DNA from: Candidatus Aphodosoma sp. | GTDB lineage: Bacteria > Bacteroidota > Bacteroidia > Bacteroidales > Paludibacteraceae | DNA length: 64,000 bases | Direction: 5' to 3' | Assembly: GCA_045600865.1 (NCBI GenBank) | Contig: JAZRYS010000168.1 | Coordinates: 1,556 to 65,555 of the forward strand | Part shown: piece after piece, positions 1,448-42,055 of the stretch | Layout of the letters: each line of letters begins with the position of its first letter | Position numbering within the stretch: the first letter of the stretch is position 1 | Position numbers and translations under genes: made by a program | The notes under the pieces: generated by a model | The model's input: the letters and a program-made list of their open reading frames with translations, nothing else | What the model was told of the DNA's origin: nothing | Databases searched by the model: none

Positions 1448-2321
1448 ATCTAATCCCAAGAAATTAGGCAGGGGACTCGACACGCTGTTGGGCAGTGCCG
1501 CCACTGAGGTGAAAGAGGCTCTGAAGACGATGGTGTTTGAGGAGTTGGCTATCAGTCAGATACATCCGAATCCTGACCAGCCTCGAAAGAACTTTGACCA
1601 GGAGGCTCTGGAAGAGTTGGCTGAGAGTATCCGCAGAAACGGCATCATCACACCGATAACCGTGTGCAAGGATCCTGCCAAAGGCGGCTACATGATTATA
1701 GCAGGTGAACGCAGATACCGTGCTGCACAGATGGTGGGTCTCGAGAAAATGCCGGCATACATACGTGAAGTGGATGACGAGAAGGTGCTGGAGATGGCGC
1801 TGGTTGAGAACATACAACGTGAAGACCTGAATGCAATAGAAATTGCATTGACATACAGCAATATGGCTGATATGTACAAGCTCTCGCAGGAGGAATTGGC
1901 AGAAAGGGTCGGAAAGAAGCGTGCAACTGTCACAAACTACATGAGGCTGCTTGAACTTCCTGCCGAAATACAGATGGGCTTGCGTGATCACAAGATAGAG
2001 ATGGGCCATGCACGTGCAATAGCAGGATTAAACTCAGTAGAAAAACAAATTTCCGTATATAACAAAATTCTGGCTGAAGGTGCATCGGTGAGAAGAACTG
2101 AACAGCTTTGCCGCGAAGTTGACACTCTGAAACAAAAAGAAAACAAAAAATCGGCAGAGACTGAAGCAATCGAAGAGTCTCTGCGTCTAATATTCGGATG
2201 CGACGTGAAGGTGAATTATTCAGATAAGGGTTCGGGTGACGTGAAAATCAGGTTCAAAAGCGATGCTGAGTTCGAGAAGCTGCTGGGTATCATCGAGAAG
2301 TTGAAGATTGAAGAGGAGTGA
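1437..2321 (+). CDS. parB: Chromosome partitioning protein ParB/Spo0J (parS-binding)
   Basis: Contains LGRGLDTLL, IHPNPDQPRKNFDQEALEELAESIRRNGIITPI and IIAGERRYRAA ParB-box motifs, plus an HTH (SQEELAERVGKKRATVTNYMRL). Confidence 0.92.
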   Translation: MANKSNPKKLGRGLDTLLGSAATEVKEALKTMVFEELAISQIHPNPDQPRKNFDQEALEELAESIRRNGIITPITVCKDPAKGGYMIIAGERRYRAAQMVGLEKMPAYIREVDDEKVLEMALVENIQREDLNAIEIALTYSNMADMYKLSQEELAERVGKKRATVTNYMRLLELPAEIQMGLRDHKIEMGHARAIAGLNSVEKQISVYNKILAEGASVRRTEQLCREVDTLKQKENKKSAETEAIEESLRLIFGCDVKVNYSDKGSGDVKIRFKSDAEFEKLLGIIEKLKIEEE

Positions 2322-3052
2322 AAAAACTGTTGCAGATATTGCTGTTGCTGACAGTGTGCGTGGCTACAGACGCACAGTCTTTGTCGATATCTGACAGTAT
2401 TGACAATATCGACAATGTGGCGGTGGAGGCATTACCTATAACAAGCGACAGTGCCTTGGTAAAGACGGCAGAAGCAATGCCTGTGATAAGTGACAGTTTG
2501 GCTTTCAAGGCAATGCCGATGAAAAGAGACAGCATAGTCACCAAGAAAGACGAACCTGAGTCCGTACCTCTTTACGCGAACTTTCAGCCTAATCCCAACA
2601 CTGCTTTATGGCTGGCGCTGGCAATTCCAGGAGCAGGACAGATTTATAACAGAAAATACTGGAAATTGCCTATAGTCTATGGACTTGGAGTCGGGGTGGG
2701 TTATGCCATAGCTTATACCAACAGAAATTATCAGGACTACAGGAACGCCTACCAATCTATCAATTCGTCAATGCCTAATCCTGATTTGTATGAGCCAATG
2801 ATACCAGATGGCTATCCTGCAGGTTCGTACAGCAACTATTTCAAGACACAGATGGACAAATTCAGGCGGGAGCGTGACATCTCTATAGTGGCCGCAGTAG
2901 TTGTTTATGCTTTGTCGGTGATAGATGCTTTCGTGGATGCACAATTGAGCGATTTTGATGTTTCGCCAGACCTTTCGATAAAGGTGGCACCAGAGGTGCA
3001 GCAGGTAAACCACCATCAGGCTGTAGGAATGGGGGTTGGCGTGAAATTCTAG
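2318..3052 (+). CDS. Signal-peptide membrane protein, DUF5683-like
   Basis: GTG start overlaps the parB stop (GTGA). It has an N-terminal signal peptide. WLALAIPGAGQIYNRKYWKLPIVYG resembles the DUF5683 motif as I recall it. Position after parB is typical of Bacteroidales. Confidence 0.6.
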   Translation: MKKLLQILLLLTVCVATDAQSLSISDSIDNIDNVAVEALPITSDSALVKTAEAMPVISDSLAFKAMPMKRDSIVTKKDEPESVPLYANFQPNPNTALWLALAIPGAGQIYNRKYWKLPIVYGLGVGVGYAIAYTNRNYQDYRNAYQSINSSMPNPDLYEPMIPDGYPAGSYSNYFKTQMDKFRRERDISIVAAVVVYALSVIDAFVDAQLSDFDVSPDLSIKVAPEVQQVNHHQAVGMGVGVKF

Positions 3053-3080
3053 ATTTTCTAGAAGTTCTAGATGCTCTAGA
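3048..3080. repeat. Four tandem 9-bp units, each containing the palindrome TCTAGA
   Basis: TCTAGA occurs at 3048, 3057, 3066 and 3075 with an exact 9-bp period. The first copy contains the TAG stop of the upstream gene. The array ends 23 nt before the next ATG. Confidence 0.9.
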
Positions 3081-3102
3081 TAAACTATATACTAAAAATG
3101 AA

Positions 3103-4383
3103 ATGAAAAAGACGATTATAATATTACTGATGATTTTGCCGTTGATGCTGACGGCACAGACATCCGAAGAATTTAAGTTTGCATTCGGCACAGACAGCGT
3201 TGTCGTAGATAACCCGACATGCGACTCGCTGCTGACAGCAGAACCATTGCAGATATATGCCTCGGAACTTGATTCGCTGATGCACGACTGTTTCATAAAC
3301 CTGGCATTCTCGAGCGATTGCGAAGTAGATGATACGGCGGGCTGCGTGTTCTTCCCTGATTCAGTGTATATTGAAAGGCTGCAAAAGCTGCCATATATCA
3401 TGGAAATGCCGCTCAGCGAGGAGGTGAAGAAATTCATCGAGATGTATGCAAAGAGAAGAAGACAGGTGGCATATATGTTAGGTGTCGGCCAGTCGTATTA
3501 TTTCGAGATGTTCCAGCAGACGCTGGCAAAACACAATATACCATTAGAACTGTGCTATCTGCCAGTGATAGAGAGTGCCCTGAACGCAAGAGCCATATCA
3601 AGAGCAGGTGCCGGGGGACTATGGCAATTCATGGTGAAAACAGGCCATGTTTACGGATTGGAAGTCAACAGTCTGGTTGACGAACGAATGGACCCTATGA
3701 AATCAACAGATGCCGCAGCAAGATACCTGAAATACATGTATTCAATATACAACGACTGGCACATGGTGATAGCAGCCTACAATTGCGGACCCGGCAACGT
3801 GCAGAAAGCAATACGCAACAGTGGCGGCAAGACGACATTCTGGGAAATATACCCATACTTGCCACGCGAGACGAAAGGATACGTACCTATTTTCATTGCG
3901 GCTTGTTACATAATGAATTATTACACAGAACACAACATTTGTCCTGCAAAATCCAAATACACATATTCAACAGACACTGTCATGATTAGCGACAGGGTTC
4001 ACCTGAGACAGATAGCAGAAGTCGTGGGTATAGATTACGAGGAACTTGCATTCTTGAACCCACAATACAAGACCGGAATAATACCGGGAAACGTCAAGCC
4101 ATATCCTCTTACGGTGCCGTTGGCATACATAAATTCGTATTCCCTGAATAGAGATTCCATACTTGCATACAAGCCTGAACTTTCGGCAAGGATAGAGACT
4201 GTGAAGCCTGCTGGTGGAGGAAACAGCAGCGGAAGTGGCAACAAGGTTTATTATAAAGTGCGCAAAGGTGACAACCTGGCGGCGATAGCAAAGAAATACC
4301 GCACGTCTGTAAAGCGTCTGAAACAATTGAACAAGCTGCAAGGCAATACCATAAAAATCGGACAGAGATTGAGAGTGAGGTGA
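3103..4383 (+). CDS. Lytic murein transglycosylase (MltD-like) with a C-terminal LysM domain
   Basis: SLT motif VIESALNARAISRAGAGGLWQFM..AAYNCGPGNV. LysM domain YYKVRKGDNLAAIAKKYRTSVKRLKQLN. Signal peptide present. Confidence 0.85.
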   Translation: MKKTIIILLMILPLMLTAQTSEEFKFAFGTDSVVVDNPTCDSLLTAEPLQIYASELDSLMHDCFINLAFSSDCEVDDTAGCVFFPDSVYIERLQKLPYIMEMPLSEEVKKFIEMYAKRRRQVAYMLGVGQSYYFEMFQQTLAKHNIPLELCYLPVIESALNARAISRAGAGGLWQFMVKTGHVYGLEVNSLVDERMDPMKSTDAAARYLKYMYSIYNDWHMVIAAYNCGPGNVQKAIRNSGGKTTFWEIYPYLPRETKGYVPIFIAACYIMNYYTEHNICPAKSKYTYSTDTVMISDRVHLRQIAEVVGIDYEELAFLNPQYKTGIIPGNVKPYPLTVPLAYINSYSLNRDSILAYKPELSARIETVKPAGGGNSSGSGNKVYYKVRKGDNLAAIAKKYRTSVKRLKQLNKLQGNTIKIGQRLRVR

Positions 4384-4747: not shown

Positions 4748-5347
4748 ATGGACGCAATAACACGCATATACTTGACCCAGGCAATTTCGTCAATAGTGCT
4801 GTTCGGAGGAATAGCGTATGCCGGGATATGGATTACTGACAAGAGAAATCCTTTCAAGGTCTGTGCATTGGACAAGTCGCTGACTTGGAAACAAGTGGGG
4901 ATAATCTTTGCCGCAATCCTCGTGGTTCAGCCAATCATAGAGTTGACGCTGAAGTGGAACCAGATGATTGATTTCGGACCATTTTTCAGAATGCTGGACG
5001 AGCAGGCTGACGCCATGACAAAGATGCTGCTGAGCGACATGTCTTTCGGAAGGCTGATTGCCAACCTGCTGGTGATAGCACTGATACCTGCATTCGTCGA
5101 AGAATTCCTTTTCCGCGGATGGCTGCAGAGAAGACTCGAAATGAAAGTGAATTACCATGCGGCAGTATGGGTGACGGCAATAGTCTTCTCGCTCGTGCAT
5201 CTGCAGATGTCTGGCTGCATACCAAGAATGCTTCTTGGTGCCATGCTCGGCTATTCGTACCATTACACAAAGACATTGTGGGGGAGCGTGCTGATGCATT
5301 TTGTGAATAATGCCTTTGCAGTATTGACTTTTAATATAGTATTTTAG
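4748..5347 (+). CDS. CPBP (CAAX) family intramembrane glutamic endopeptidase
   Basis: Multi-pass membrane protein with EEFLFRGWL, FSLVH and HFVNNAFA motifs. Confidence 0.8.
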   Translation: MDAITRIYLTQAISSIVLFGGIAYAGIWITDKRNPFKVCALDKSLTWKQVGIIFAAILVVQPIIELTLKWNQMIDFGPFFRMLDEQADAMTKMLLSDMSFGRLIANLLVIALIPAFVEEFLFRGWLQRRLEMKVNYHAAVWVTAIVFSLVHLQMSGCIPRMLLGAMLGYSYHYTKTLWGSVLMHFVNNAFAVLTFNIVF

Positions 5348-5360
5348 AAAAAATAGATAT

Positions 5361-5669
5361 ATGTTAGAATTGGAATCACGCATAGTAGAGATGCTGAAGA
5401 CCGTATTTGACCCTGAAATACCTGTTAACGTGTATGACCTCGGGTTGATATACAGGATTGAAGACATGACCGGAAACGGTGACGTGGAGATAGACATGAC
5501 GTTGACAGCTCCAAACTGTCCGGCAGCAGATTTCATTGCCGAAGACGTGAAAGAGAAAGTCGAATCAGTGAAAGGAGTAAATTCACTGCAAGTGCACATA
5601 GTATATGAACCAGAGTGGGACCGCGACATGATGAGCGAAGAGGCAAAACTGGAATTAGGACTCCTATAA
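5361..5669 (+). CDS. DUF59/SufT-like metal-sulfur cluster assembly factor
   Basis: VFDPEIPVNVYDLGLIY...TLTAPNCPAADFI is typical of the MIP18/DUF59 family. Confidence 0.75.
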   Translation: MLELESRIVEMLKTVFDPEIPVNVYDLGLIYRIEDMTGNGDVEIDMTLTAPNCPAADFIAEDVKEKVESVKGVNSLQVHIVYEPEWDRDMMSEEAKLELGLL

Positions 5670-5706
5670 TTGAAAAATCAGAATAAACTAAACACATTAT
5701 ATTGTT

Positions 5707-26097: not shown

Positions 26098-26492
26098 ATC
26101 AGTGTGTTTTAATATGTTGCCTACTCTAAAAAGGATTTTCGGCATACTCCATGTTTTTCTCAGTCCGTTGTTTGACGAGGCACAAAAAGTGGACTAACCT
26201 TTTCTATTCACAATCATAGACATCACCCCATTATGACAGTTTAGCAATTTGAAGATTGTGCAAAACAATGAATAACATCATGTTCTTAGTTGTGCATTTA
26301 GTTACATTTTATCCCATAGGCTTAATTTAATTAATTTTACACAGTTGAATCTATTTACTATGAGACCTAAAACCAATTACAATCAGGTAAAAGCTGAACA
26401 TACCTTATTGCAATCAATCAAAATACGTTTTCTGAGTTTTTGCAAAAGATGGCAAAATCTTTGTCTTGAAAAAAACATCTGATGTCTTTTTT

Positions 26493-26926: not shown

Positions 26927-27017
26927 GCGCCTTCGCTCGGGGTTCGCTCGGTATTCGCTTTTTGACCCCGAGAAGCGAATACCGAGCGAACTCGCAGCGA
27001 ACCTGCAGCGAACCTAA
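26927..27017. repeat. Iteron-like array: three forward TTCGCT and four reverse AGCGAA hexamers phased at exactly 11 bp
   Basis: TTCGCT lies at 26932, 26943 and 26954. AGCGAA lies at 26974, 26985, 26996 and 27007. The inner units form a perfect 19-bp inverted repeat (26942-26960 / 26973-26991). Confidence 0.85.
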
Positions 27018-38782: not shown

Positions 38783-38839
38783 ATTATGATTATTATGTTA
38801 GTTATCTATTTTTAGACTACAATAATTATCAATTGTCAA

Positions 38840-39352
38840 TTATTTCACATAGCCTAATTTCAGCAGCAACTCATCGCTCACATCCAGTTTTGGTGACATA
38901 TATACAATACTTGTTGCTGTAGATTTATCCAGAATCATCTGGGCTTTATGCTGTTCGCATATCTCTTTCAGTGCATTATACACCTCGTCGAGGATAGGTT
39001 TCACCAGTGCCTCGCGTTTCTTGTCCAGTTCGCCGCCTGCCCCGAAATAGAGTTTTTTCAGGTCGCTGGCTTCTTTTTCTTTTGCCACTATCTGGGCTGC
39101 ACGCTGTTTCTTCATTTCGTCGCTGAGGAAGACAATCTCTGTCTCATAGTTTTTCTGCATGACGCGTGCTTCTGCTTCAAGTGTCTCAACCTCACGTTGC
39201 CATTTCTTCGACACCTGTTCGAGTTGTTCGTTTGCAGTCTCGTATGATGGTATCTGGCTAAGCACGTATTCCATGTCAACCACTGCAAACTTCTGTGCAC
39301 TCACTCCCATCCAACAACCCAATGCCAATAAAATCAGTGCTATCTTTTTCAT
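38840..39352 (-). CDS. OmpH/Skp family periplasmic chaperone
   Basis: Second Skp-like paralogue: signal peptide and FAVVDMEYVL...KKWQREVE. Confidence 0.8.
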   Translation of the reverse strand: MKKIALILLALGCWMGVSAQKFAVVDMEYVLSQIPSYETANEQLEQVSKKWQREVETLEAEARVMQKNYETEIVFLSDEMKKQRAAQIVAKEKEASDLKKLYFGAGGELDKKREALVKPILDEVYNALKEICEQHKAQMILDKSTATSIVYMSPKLDVSDELLLKLGYVK

Positions 39353-39368
39353 AATATATTAGTTTTTT

Positions 39369-39430
39369 TCTAGATATTCTAGAATCTCTAGATACTCTAG
39401 AACCTCTAGCTATTCTATAGAACTTCTAGT
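39369..39430. repeat. Seven tandem ~9-bp units containing TCTAGA (four perfect, three degenerate)
   Basis: TCTAGA at 39369, 39378, 39387 and 39396. TCTAGC at 39405, TCTATA at 39414 and TCTAGT at 39425. The array fills the bamA-skp intercistronic spacer. Confidence 0.9.
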
Positions 39431-39433
39431 TTA

Positions 39434-42055
39434 TTAGAATTCCTGCCCAAGGATAAAATGGAAGTGCGAGCCGCCAAGAGTTCCAGTCTGGTCTTTGTCG
39501 AAGCCCCATCCCCAGTCAACACCAAGCAGACCAAACATAGGCAGAAATACGCGTACACCAACTCCTGCAGACCTCTTCAGTTCGAATGGGTTGAACTCCT
39601 TGAATTCTGTCCAGCAGTTGCCACCTTCCAGGAATCCCAACACCCATATTGTCGATTGAGGTTTTAGCAATATAGGGTATCTTATCTCCATTGTCAGCTT
39701 AGTGTAGATGTTACCTGCATATCCCCAGTAACCATCGCCTGAGTAAGGGGTAAGGGTTCCCGAATCATAACCTCTGACTGCCACCAGTTCACTACCTGGA
39801 GTAACGTAACCCGAAGTACCGTCACCTCCCACCAGGAATTTACCGAATGCAGAACGCTTATCGTGGTTGTAATAACCCAAGAAGCCGTATTCTGCCCTTG
39901 CCATCAGTACAAGTTTCTCATCTGGAGTCAGAGGCACAAAGAACTGGGCCTTGAATTTCCATTTATGATATTCTACCCATTCGTTTCTCTGAGCCAGATC
40001 CATGTTGGCATAATCCTTGTCTTTGTTTGCAGGGAATGCCGAGTATGGCAAAGTCGCTGAAACTGACAGCGATATGTTGGAACCTCTTCTTGTATATATC
40101 GGGTTGTTTATCGAATTTCGAGAGAGTGTTATTCCGAGTGCAAGGTCGTTTGTGACACCACTTTCAAAGCCATAGTAATATTTGAACCAATTGTTTAGAT
40201 GGTGACGCTGGTACGACAGTTCACAGAAAATCTGGAAGTAATCGTCAGGCCAGTTTAACCTTGTACCATAACCTACCGATGTGCCGAGCGTTCTCATATA
40301 TACGTTCTTGTCGTATTCCGTACCCCAACTGTTATAATTGTAGTTGTATGTCTGGTCATATATTCCATAGTAGTTGGTGTAGTAATTGCTCATGTTGTTA
40401 TAGTTGGTGTAGGCGCGGTTGCTCAATCCGGTCTGCACGGCATAGTAAATGCTGAATGAGAAAGAATTTGGACGTTTGCCACCCAACCATGGGTCAAAAA
40501 ACGAAAGGCTGTAGTTCTGATAGTAAATGCCATTCACTTGTGCCTTGAGGCTCAATGTCTGTCCTTCTCCCTGAGGCACAATCCGGTATGTCTTAGGCTT
40601 GAATAAGTTCTGTATGGCGAAGTTGGTAAATTTCAGTCCCACAGAGAGCACAAGTCCTGACTGGCCGACACCGGCAGAGAACTCTATCTGGTCGGAATTC
40701 TTGCTCTCAAGGTTAAAGTCGATGTCAACAGTACCTGTCTCCATATCTGGTTTCATGTCAACTCCTGAGTATATCTTCTCCTCGTCAAACTGTCCCAATT
40801 GTGCCAGTTCACGCAAAGTACGTACAAGGTCACTTTGGCTGTATAGTGCACCTGGTTTCACCCTCATCTCGCGTCGAACGACATGCTCATACAATTTAGT
40901 GTTACCATTGATGGTTATCTTGTTTATTGTGGCTTGCGAACCTTCGTATATGCGGAACTCGTAATTGATGGAGTCACCATTTATTCCAGTCTCTACCGGA
41001 TCGAGTTGCATGAACAGATAACCATTGTCTTTGTAAAGAGCTGTCACGGCATCTTCTTCCTCAAACAGTCGCTTGTCCATTTGCTTGCCGTTGTAAATGT
41101 CGCCTTGATTCAACCCGAGTATCTGGTTCAGGTATTCAGACGAATACATGGTGTTGCCCACCCACTTCATTTCGCCGAAGTAATATTTCTTGCCTTCGGT
41201 TATGTCCATGTAGATATCTACTCGTCCGTCATCACGGCGAATCACTGTGTCGTATTCGATTTTGGCATCACGGAACCCCATCTCGTTATATTTCTCGATC
41301 AGTGTCTTCTTGTCGTTTGCGTATTCCTTAGGAATGAACTTCTTTGACCGGAAAATGTTCTGTATCTTGCCTTTACGGTTGGTTTTCTTCATGGCCTTGT
41401 CAATCTTGTACATGCTCAAGGCTGAATTTCCGGTGACGATTATGTCGTTCACCTTCACTTTTGTTCCCTTATCTACACTGATGTCTATCAGCACGTTGCT
41501 GTCGTCCGCAGGGTCTGGTTTCTGATAGACAACCACCTCTGCAGAGTAGTAGCCCTTGTCAGCCAGGTATTTCTTTATCGCTATCTTCGTGCGGTCTATG
41601 GCATCTGCATTCAGCTGCTTGTTCTTTTGTATTTCGACTGTTGGGTCGATATCTTCTATTTCGCCCTTTTTCAGGCCGTAATAGTTTACTTTTTTGACGC
41701 GTGGCAGTTGTTTCAGTGCAATAGTTATCCATAGGCTGTCACCAATGATGCTGTCTGCATAGATTTTGACATCGGCAAAGAATCCCTGTTTCCAGAATTT
41801 CTTAACCGCATTGGTTATTTTTGCACCTGGCATCTTCAATCTTTCACCGACAGTCAGGCCAGAGAAACCCACCAACATATAGTCTTCATAATGGTCTGCT
41901 CCTTCGATATTTATCCCCATCAGCACATATTCACGATTTGTTTCGGCATAATCGATCTTATACCGTTCCGTGATGCTTTCTTGTGCAATCGACTTCATTG
42001 TCGTCAGCAGCAGCAATATGACTAAAGAATATCTTTTCACGTCAATAATTTTCAC
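39434..42055 (-). CDS. bamA: Outer membrane protein assembly factor BamA
   Basis: 873 aa, with a signal peptide, POTRA-like repeats and a C-terminal Omp85 barrel ending ...HFHFILGQEF. Confidence 0.9.
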   Translation of the reverse strand: MKIIDVKRYSLVILLLLTTMKSIAQESITERYKIDYAETNREYVLMGINIEGADHYEDYMLVGFSGLTVGERLKMPGAKITNAVKKFWKQGFFADVKIYADSIIGDSLWITIALKQLPRVKKVNYYGLKKGEIEDIDPTVEIQKNKQLNADAIDRTKIAIKKYLADKGYYSAEVVVYQKPDPADDSNVLIDISVDKGTKVKVNDIIVTGNSALSMYKIDKAMKKTNRKGKIQNIFRSKKFIPKEYANDKKTLIEKYNEMGFRDAKIEYDTVIRRDDGRVDIYMDITEGKKYYFGEMKWVGNTMYSSEYLNQILGLNQGDIYNGKQMDKRLFEEEDAVTALYKDNGYLFMQLDPVETGINGDSINYEFRIYEGSQATINKITINGNTKLYEHVVRREMRVKPGALYSQSDLVRTLRELAQLGQFDEEKIYSGVDMKPDMETGTVDIDFNLESKNSDQIEFSAGVGQSGLVLSVGLKFTNFAIQNLFKPKTYRIVPQGEGQTLSLKAQVNGIYYQNYSLSFFDPWLGGKRPNSFSFSIYYAVQTGLSNRAYTNYNNMSNYYTNYYGIYDQTYNYNYNSWGTEYDKNVYMRTLGTSVGYGTRLNWPDDYFQIFCELSYQRHHLNNWFKYYYGFESGVTNDLALGITLSRNSINNPIYTRRGSNISLSVSATLPYSAFPANKDKDYANMDLAQRNEWVEYHKWKFKAQFFVPLTPDEKLVLMARAEYGFLGYYNHDKRSAFGKFLVGGDGTSGYVTPGSELVAVRGYDSGTLTPYSGDGYWGYAGNIYTKLTMEIRYPILLKPQSTIWVLGFLEGGNCWTEFKEFNPFELKRSAGVGVRVFLPMFGLLGVDWGWGFDKDQTGTLGGSHFHFILGQEF

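Follow-up and report, generated by a model that had tools for sequence, protein, structure and literature searches.

TCTAGA nonamer arrays at two operon junctions of a Candidatus Aphodosoma genome as probable solo members of a repeat family flanking a four-helix-bundle gene

Dispersed short tandem repeats, such as the short tandemly repeated repetitive (STRR) sequences and the TAACTGA repeats, have been familiar for decades, without a mechanism or a binding partner being assigned to them. In Beggiatoaceae, Cyanobacteria and Bacteroidetes, they usually comprise 2–6 copies, lie for the most part between genes and a short way upstream of start codons, a few being inside open reading frames (ORFs), and display a patchy, apparently horizontal distribution (PMC4679880; bioRxiv 10.1101/2022.06.06.494920). 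The interacting partner of the Nostoc heptamers was described as 'yet to be identified' (bioRxiv 10.1101/2022.06.06.494920), and the TAACTGA paper (PMC4679880) makes no mention of a four-helix-bundle gene. Here, we focus on two arrays of the palindrome TCTAGA, repeated every 9 bp, in a 64,000-nt stretch of Candidatus Aphodosoma sp. (hereafter the window, G000:C168:1556-65555), which belongs to a 2.66-Mb draft genome (G000) of 275 contigs with 44.8% GC. We propose, with a probability of about 0.58, that both are gene-less ('solo') members of a fast-evolving (TCTAGA-N3)n family, itself the partner repeat of a four-helix-bundle gene cassette located on contig C64 of the same genome. Literature searches retrieved neither a description of TCTAGA/CTAG tandem repeats in Prevotella or Bacteroidetes nor the pairing of a four-helix-bundle gene with repeat arrays, in agreement with an earlier reading of the window from its letters (the sequence-only reading), which knew of no described element of this kind.

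The TCTAGA arrays resemble the STRR/TAACTGA repeats in being mostly intergenic (27 out of 40 arrays in the genome), in lying 5–39 nt upstream of the ATG in 21 of the 22 co-directional cases, and in having A-rich spacers on the sense strand. However, the latter repeats are built from an invariant 7-mer, whereas TCTAGA units measure 9 bp and combine a palindromic CTAG core with a variable spacer; a 7-bp period is found in a separate AATTGAn family of the same genome. The REP/BIME/REPIN repeats of Proteobacteria, which go with RAYT genes, are likewise short repeats dispersed intergenically, with a cognate gene flanked by the repeat, a repeat sequence varying with the protein clade, and numbers differing greatly among related genomes. 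Yet RAYT repeats are 20–40-bp imperfect palindromes and strictly extragenic, and their partner is a Y1 HUH transposase, whereas the arrays considered here consist of 9-bp tandem units with a 6-nt core and free spacers, 13 out of 40 lie inside ORFs and in frame, the partner is a four-helix-bundle protein without known catalytic activity, and the sole Y1_Tnp gene of the genome is unrelated to the arrays. The same protein family is met in the 23S rRNA intervening sequences carrying an S23p/PF05635 ORF (of the Leptospira, Coxiella and Xanthomonas type), where the gene is also enclosed by complementary or repeated flanks, and in the Avd protein of diversity-generating retroelements (DGRs). In contrast to these systems, neither the cassette nor the arrays are located in rRNA, the flanks are tandem 9-mers that also exist as about 39 gene-less copies, and no reverse transcriptase match is present on the cassette contig C64. 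Finally, the tandem units of mycobacterial interspersed repetitive units (MIRUs) similarly fill intercistronic gaps of operons, with stop and start codons at or near the array ends, but, in a comparison made by unit size alone, they measure 40–100 bp, with small ORFs, against 9 bp here. To our knowledge, MIRUs have no known partner gene.

The partner gene was located by a PF05635 profile search of the genome, which gave two matches. The weaker one is a gene coding for a 220-aa four-helix-bundle protein with a 'suffix' domain (C64:4942-5604), and TCTAGA arrays are found on either side of it (4887-4946 and 5640-5690), the whole cassette spanning positions 4887-5690 between a CcsA-like gene and a cytochrome c gene. 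Two NCBIfam models recognise its product: TIGR04258 (four helix bundle suffix domain) with 70 bits, and TIGR02436 (four helix bundle protein) with 26.1 bits, the cut-off being 24. A search of PDB sequences with this protein gave no significant match, and a single-sequence structure prediction was too poor for use (pLDDT of 51). An alignment-based model reached a pLDDT of 88, with 2GSC as best match (target TM-score of 0.88, rmsd of 1.9 Å) and 2RLD as a further one, both being solved PF05635 proteins whose entries contain five chains or more. A review (PMC10053308) points out the likeness of PF05635 to Avd, the accessory protein of DGRs. In genomes G008 and G014, the two cassette-neighbour genes stand side by side and the cassette is missing, so that it represents an insertion relative to both genomes. 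The G008 homologue (73% identical) occupies another locus, where it is directly preceded by the sole TCTAGA array of that genome, and in G280 and G302, the other genomes with arrays at several loci, the homologue has TCTAGA arrays on both sides. We also observed a TCTAGA array (G000:C113:27550-27600) 30 nt upstream of the orthologue of a gene neighbouring the G008 cassette, on the opposite side.

The association between gene and repeat is seen in this genome, in other members of the bacterial family and in other phyla. For 34 TIGR04258 loci drawn from 12 genera, the 170-nt flanks contain 3.88 tandem repeats with a period of 8, 9, 10 or 18 per kb, versus 0.119 per kb elsewhere in the loci (33-fold). 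The flanking units vary by lineage and include CTAG types, TAAGGAC/GTCCTTA, CCTATTAG, GACTGATAA and CGTCCGAC. A maximum-likelihood tree places all 11 CTAG-flanked proteins, from four genera, in one clade (support 100/98), and the TAAGGAC-flanked proteins in a separate clade. One host genus may hold several protein clades, each with its own repeat; the core tracks the protein clade and not the host genus. Genome G146, whose gene is flanked by (TAAGGACNN)n, carries the TAAGGAC-type unit dispersed at no fewer than 30 loci (94 matches, 0 in the control), and in G212, G089 and G006 the flanking unit is essentially confined to the side of the gene. Kiritimatiellae homologues, 63% identical to the C64 protein, are wrapped on both sides by 250–390 nt of CTAG 9-mers, which matches the cross-phylum spread of the arrays: in a scan of species-representative genomes, variable-spacer CTAG arrays were detected in many rumen and gut Bacteroidales metagenome assemblies, and also in Victivallales, Lentisphaeria and Kiritimatiellae contigs of 55–66% GC. 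With regard to their architecture, each flank in the Kiritimatiellae contigs (L396-L405) is made of two mutually complementary blocks (GGCTAGAnn, then TCTAGnnnn) that could form a long hairpin, and an intrinsic-terminator-like hairpin stands ahead of the upstream block.

At the level of whole genomes, TCTAGA arrays were present in 8 out of 14 genomes with a clade homologue, defined by at least 53% identity over nearly the full length, versus 14 out of 287 without (301 genomes; odds ratio of 26, p of 5e-7, shared ancestry being ignored). The protein family is widespread, 7,951 of 8,000 scored relatives matching at E <= 1e-5, and only its CTAG clade co-occurs with TCTAGA arrays.

In the window, the first array (3048-3080, forward strand) lies between a DUF5683 gene and an SLT/LysM gene, and holds four exact TCTAGA units at 3048, 3057, 3066 and 3075, that is, with a period of exactly 9 bp, separated by the spacers TTT, AGT and GCT; the letters 3043-3085 read GAAAT TCTAGATTT TCTAGAAGT TCTAGATGC TCTAGA TAAAC. 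The TAG stop codon of the DUF5683 gene (3050-3052, forward strand) is contained in unit 1. The second array (39369-39430, reverse strand) occupies the bamA-skp spacer with four exact units, again at a 9-bp period (39369, 39378, 39387 and 39396), and three degenerate ones, TCTAGC (39405), TCTATA (39414) and TCTAGT (39425); the letters 39362-39433 read T7 CTAGATAT TCTAGAATC TCTAGATAC TCTAGAACC TCTAGCTAT TCTATAGAAC TTCTAGTTTA. On the coding strand, it begins 14 nt past the bamA stop and ends 16 nt short of the skp start. Both arrays are recovered by Tandem Repeats Finder (3047-3081, period 9, 3.9 copies; 39368-39439, period 9/18). Period, stop codon inside unit 1 and position ahead of the transglycosylase gene, and a longer related array in the bamA-skp spacer had all been described in the sequence-only reading, and the letters, the repeat search and the Pfam assignments agree with it, degenerate units included. 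All eight TCTAGA of the window fall inside the two arrays and none elsewhere, for 14.5 expected from dinucleotide-preserving shuffles. An Rfam scan of the window at the gathering threshold gave no match at either array.

When arrays are defined as at least three phased units, each with at most one mismatch, the genome holds 40 of them, totalling 214 units and 1,806 bp, and the two window arrays, already suspected to belong together, are both members of this single family. The scarcity of CTAG noticed in the window extends to the whole genome, where 658 occurrences contrast with about 10,150 expected from base composition (a depletion of about 15-fold), a Markov model giving about 3,345. Of the 658, 185 (28%) are concentrated in the 1,806 bp of arrays. 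That tandem arrays of this kind are unlikely to arise by chance is borne out by a comparison of all 64 palindromic hexamers: genome-wide runs of at least three sites at 9-bp phasing number 26 for TCTAGA and 0 for each of the other 63. Oriented with transcription, the unit reads TCTAGA-A-n-A, with core positions 85–99% conserved and a spacer information of 0.08–0.7 bits, the core conservation having been computed on arrays chosen for intact cores. Spacers are A-rich on the sense strand, and the same spacers of relatives have a like composition. The number of units per array peaks at 5–6.

With regard to placement, 22 arrays are located between co-directional genes, 3 between convergent and 1 between divergent genes, 1 at a contig end, and 13 in long ORFs. 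The proportion outside ORFs thus exceeds by far the 15% of non-coding DNA. Divergent spacers are under-represented per base (1 of 26 arrays versus 21.5% of intergenic bases, p of 0.015), while the preference for co-directional spacers has a p of 0.004 by bases but is not significant by spacer number (p of 0.23). In the co-directional spacers, the array abuts the upstream stop, with the next ATG at the short distance beyond the array end already given, and the TAG of the array itself serves as the upstream stop in 10–12 of the 22 cases, TAG accounting for 13% of stops genome-wide (p of 2e-4 to 3e-6). The intragenic arrays are always in frame, translated as (Ser-Arg-x)n or (Leu-Glu/Asp-x)n, and the frame containing TAG is never used; they are carried by conserved housekeeping genes for an O-methyltransferase, an M16 peptidase, a CcsA/ResC-like protein (3 arrays), an AddA/UvrD-like helicase, a MutS2-like protein, an HlyD-type protein, a U32 peptidase, an ABC-F ATPase and MurB (2 arrays). 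In the alignments of MurB and of the CcsA-like protein, they appear as loop insertions of 4 to 16 aa relative to same-genus orthologues. A special link to envelope genes, suggested by the two window arrays, does not survive this survey, since the 40 arrays lie beside or inside unrelated genes (MurB, CcsA-like, AddA-like helicase, ABC-F ATPase and U32 peptidase, among others). The features also speak against phase variation: the period is a multiple of 3, the intragenic arrays are in frame, and a single one of the 26 intergenic arrays lies in a divergent spacer.

Orthologous junctions were inspected in relatives. In 11 out of 11 same-genus species, no array was found in the bamA-skp spacer (15–104 nt, A-rich) or in the DUF5683-transglycosylase spacer (4–24 nt), nor was any found in the bamA-skp spacer of about 12 metagenome relatives, all with at most 62% identity; an exact-protein look-up with Skp and one metagenome scan retrieved no same-species contig. 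Runs of three TCTAGA units occur in 5 out of 25 sampled genus members, with 52 windows in the genome under study and 1–5 in the others, and in only 2 of the 30 genera in a 300-genome sample of the bacterial family. As judged from these sequence comparisons, the two window arrays are recent, lineage-specific additions at their junctions. With orthologous spacers devoid of them, the arrays are unlikely to serve the bamA-skp and DUF5683-transglycosylase operons as a conserved operator or processing site, and any conserved part that they play in regulating bamA/skp or the transglycosylase gene is probably small. In annotation, they should not be taken as conserved regulatory sites of bamA/skp.

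Several features indicate how the arrays change. Identical spacers are more frequent within an array (14.7%) than between arrays (4.6%), a 3.2-fold difference that points to local duplication of 9 or 18 bp. In sister species of genus g41 (L206-L212), one orthologous locus has, on the downstream side of its four-helix-bundle suffix gene, an array of the GTCCTTAC 9-mer that varies from 0 to 14.7 copies while the proteins are almost identical, and in six samples with an identical protein, the adjacent array differs by an indel and core substitutions. At the end of the DUF5683 gene, the final codon TTC followed by TAG and A gives TCTAGA, a natural seed; the C-terminal phenylalanine followed by the stop is conserved in relatives, two of which have TTT TAG A there, a context that fits the growth of an array from a chance seed.

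Solo arrays would then grow in place from such chance seeds, of which the TTC-TAG-A at the DUF5683 stop is an example, through slipped-strand duplication of 9 or 18 bp. The core may be kept intact through the putative reading of successive cores by the oligomeric four-helix-bundle protein, on DNA or RNA, and units without a core would cease to be bound or amplified. Solo arrays are thus probably to be seen as putative binding platforms for this protein. The suggestion that the palindromes are phased sites for a protein binder is in this way retained in altered form: the dimeric regulator is given up, and the best candidate, still putative, is the repeat-wrapped oligomeric four-helix-bundle protein.

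Besides the choice of arrays with intact cores, a number of observations weigh against the proposed partnership. Since related genomes share both features and labels, the Fisher test and the tree overstate independence. Among the 22 array-bearing genomes, 11–14 show no clade homologue, and arrays may persist or arise without the gene; these are metagenome drafts, and the four-helix-bundle gene is often at contig ends, so that some absences may be assembly gaps. The mere presence of any TIGR04258 gene is no predictor, as it is found in 11 of the 22 array-bearing genomes versus 28 of the 60 genomes of genus g35 overall. Moreover, a gene co-inherited with its flanks could explain the mapping of clade to core without recognition of the repeat by the protein, and no known mechanism would let a helical protein without enzymatic activity start arrays elsewhere in the genome.

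The strongest competitor, which we nevertheless regard as unlikely, considers the arrays as neutral or selfish minisatellites, in which hairpins of the palindromic units promote 9-bp slippage with no protein partner or function, the gene merely sitting in the arrays or recombining into them. The orthologous spacers devoid of arrays, the patchy occurrence among species, the arrays tolerated in frame inside housekeeping genes, the 0 to 14.7 copies at one locus of sister species, the differences between strains sharing an identical protein and the raised spacer identity within arrays are all as expected from such behaviour. Slippage alone, however, leaves unexplained why arrays are formed by TCTAGA but by none of the other 63 palindromic hexamers, and why the non-palindromic cores TAAGGAC and AATTGAn behave alike. 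It also fails to account for a core type that tracks the protein clade across genera and phyla, and the occurrence of the repeat only beside the gene in G212, G089, G006 and G008 argues that the gene does not simply land in pre-existing arrays. According to the sequence-only reading, absence from relatives with no expression change, together with random placement, would point to a neutral microsatellite; the arrays are indeed absent from relatives, but the genome-wide placement is not random.

A role in RNA appears still less probable. Arrays would act as intercistronic hairpins, either substrates for RNase III-type processing or stabilisers, and uncouple the cistrons, on the model of the stems of 23S rRNA intervening sequences. 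Both window arrays indeed lie in co-directional pairs, just past the stop and 16–22 nt ahead of the next start, with A-rich spacers on the sense strand, and inverse-complementary arrays around short four-helix-bundle genes could form enclosing stems. The predicted folds are nested hairpins, of −12.2 kcal/mol (z of −2.4) for the first array, with unit 1 pairing with 4 and unit 2 with 3, and of −20.8 kcal/mol (z of −1.8) for the second. These are weak structures of 6-bp helices parted by 3x3 loops, and the single nested hairpin predicted for the first array differs from the row of mini-hairpins between adjacent units that had been imagined at first. Furthermore, 13 arrays reside within coding sequences, orthologous junctions show no conservation, and the A-richness is the ordinary spacer composition in relatives. 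Sister families with non-palindromic cores are direct arrays incapable of self-pairing and behave alike, so hairpins are not the general principle.

Met-boxes and trp operators contain CTAG at 8-bp phasing, and the resemblance to them of tandem palindromic cores at fixed phase would favour the view of the arrays as phased half-sites for a dimeric regulator of the MetJ, TrpR or ribbon-helix-helix style, coordinating envelope-biogenesis operons. Apart from this and the envelope genes adjoining both window arrays, little agrees with this very improbable reading: no functional theme emerges among the 40 loci, the divergent, promoter-bearing spacers hold 1 out of 26 arrays for 21.5% of intergenic bases, orthologous operons lack the arrays, the period is 9 and not 8 bp, and neither MetJ (PF01340) nor TrpR (PF01371), the cognate repressors, has a match in the genome, which is 89% complete.

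Equally implausible are origins of the arrays as footprints of a transposable element with 9-bp target duplications at TCTAGA, or as decoys or by-products of a restriction-modification or nicking system resembling XbaI/BfaI. Several insertion sequence (IS) families do produce 9-bp target duplications, CTAG is a known IS target, and the strong genome-wide avoidance of CTAG would fit restriction pressure. However, the arrays are bordered by neither IS ends nor transposase genes, adjacent units have different spacers, which simple duplications would not produce, and the families built on other cores, including one with a 7-bp period, show the same behaviour.

Two mobile-element genes were considered and rejected. 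Reverse transcriptase, as a driver or co-factor, does not discriminate array-rich (5 out of 5) from array-poor genomes (3 out of 5). In the genome under study, three similar reverse-transcriptase genes lie near contig starts (C43:1219-1839, C139:434-1054 and C108:859-1359), and are presumably copies of one retroelement that breaks the assembly. The only Y1 transposase gene (PF01797, C48:4978-5316) has no CTAG arrays near it, the nearest CTAG words being at 2487 and 11355. This IS200/RAYT-like gene is flanked, within C48:4700-5650, by repeated GC-rich palindromes (cccagggcaagcgaag..caccctggg), an arrangement that looks like classical REP/RAYT. A TTCGCT foldback repeat occurs at 26927-27017 of the window.

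The preferred partnership of repeat and four-helix-bundle protein has a counterpart in the same genome, which is a clean case with two repeat families, each around one of its two four-helix-bundle genes. In the second family, AATT recurs every 7 bp (units AATTGAG, AATTGAT and AATTGAC), and the heptamer arrays number about 107. The other four-helix-bundle gene (C215:21503-21820, 102 bits) carries these heptamers on both flanks, with 11.6 copies upstream and 4.7 downstream. The arrays with 3, 4, 5, 6 and 7 units number 26, 31, 38, 5 and 4, respectively, that is, a peak at five followed by a collapse, and their orientation is biased towards the sense strand (37 versus 13). One of them, of three units (AATTGAC AATTGAT AATTATT, 38824-38841, coding strand being the reverse one), begins where the first skp gene has its stop codon, 0.03 being expected by chance; the bamA-skp-skp operon therefore holds one member of each of the two dispersed families. 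In Scytonema, whose genome is rich in TAACTGA repeats, a four-helix-bundle gene lies between inverted TAACTGA arrays, and other short four-helix-bundle genes of TAACTGA-rich genomes lie amid inverse-complementary heptamer-like arrays.

More speculatively, and with clearly lower confidence than for the window arrays themselves, PF05635/Avd-family proteins may be sequence-specific partners of bacterial dispersed short tandem repeats, with one core per clade and a ring of five reading about five units, gene and repeats forming a self-propagating system that seeds operon junctions and protein loops. Copy number peaks at five in the heptamer arrays (38 of 5 units against 5 of 6) and at 5–6 in the TCTAGA arrays. 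Among the repeats concerned would be, tentatively, the CTAG and TAAGGAC nonamers found in Bacteroidales of gut and rumen and in PVC bacteria, the AATTGAn heptamers, and the cyanobacterial TAACTGA/STRR heptamers. If the protein does read the repeat, a very widespread protein family would gain a function, one origin of the rapid insertions that gut and rumen bacteria acquire at operon junctions and in protein loops would be recognised, and the assembly breaks at four-helix-bundle genes would be explained.

The genes bordering the two window arrays were assigned by Pfam. Upstream of the first array, the DUF5683-family gene (2318-3052, forward strand) codes for a 244-aa protein (PF18935, E of 1.8e-47), and downstream of it, the lytic transglycosylase gene (3103-4383, forward strand) combines an SLT domain with LysM (PF01464 and PF01476) and starts 22 nt past the array. 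The second array is preceded by bamA (39434-42055, reverse strand), which codes for POTRA repeats and an Omp85 barrel (PF07244 and PF01103), and followed by a skp/OmpH gene (38840-39352, reverse strand; PF03938), one of the two OmpH/skp genes present near this array. Elsewhere in the window, the Rfam DUF805b RNA motif scored above the gathering threshold at 26118-26152 on the reverse strand (40.8 bits).

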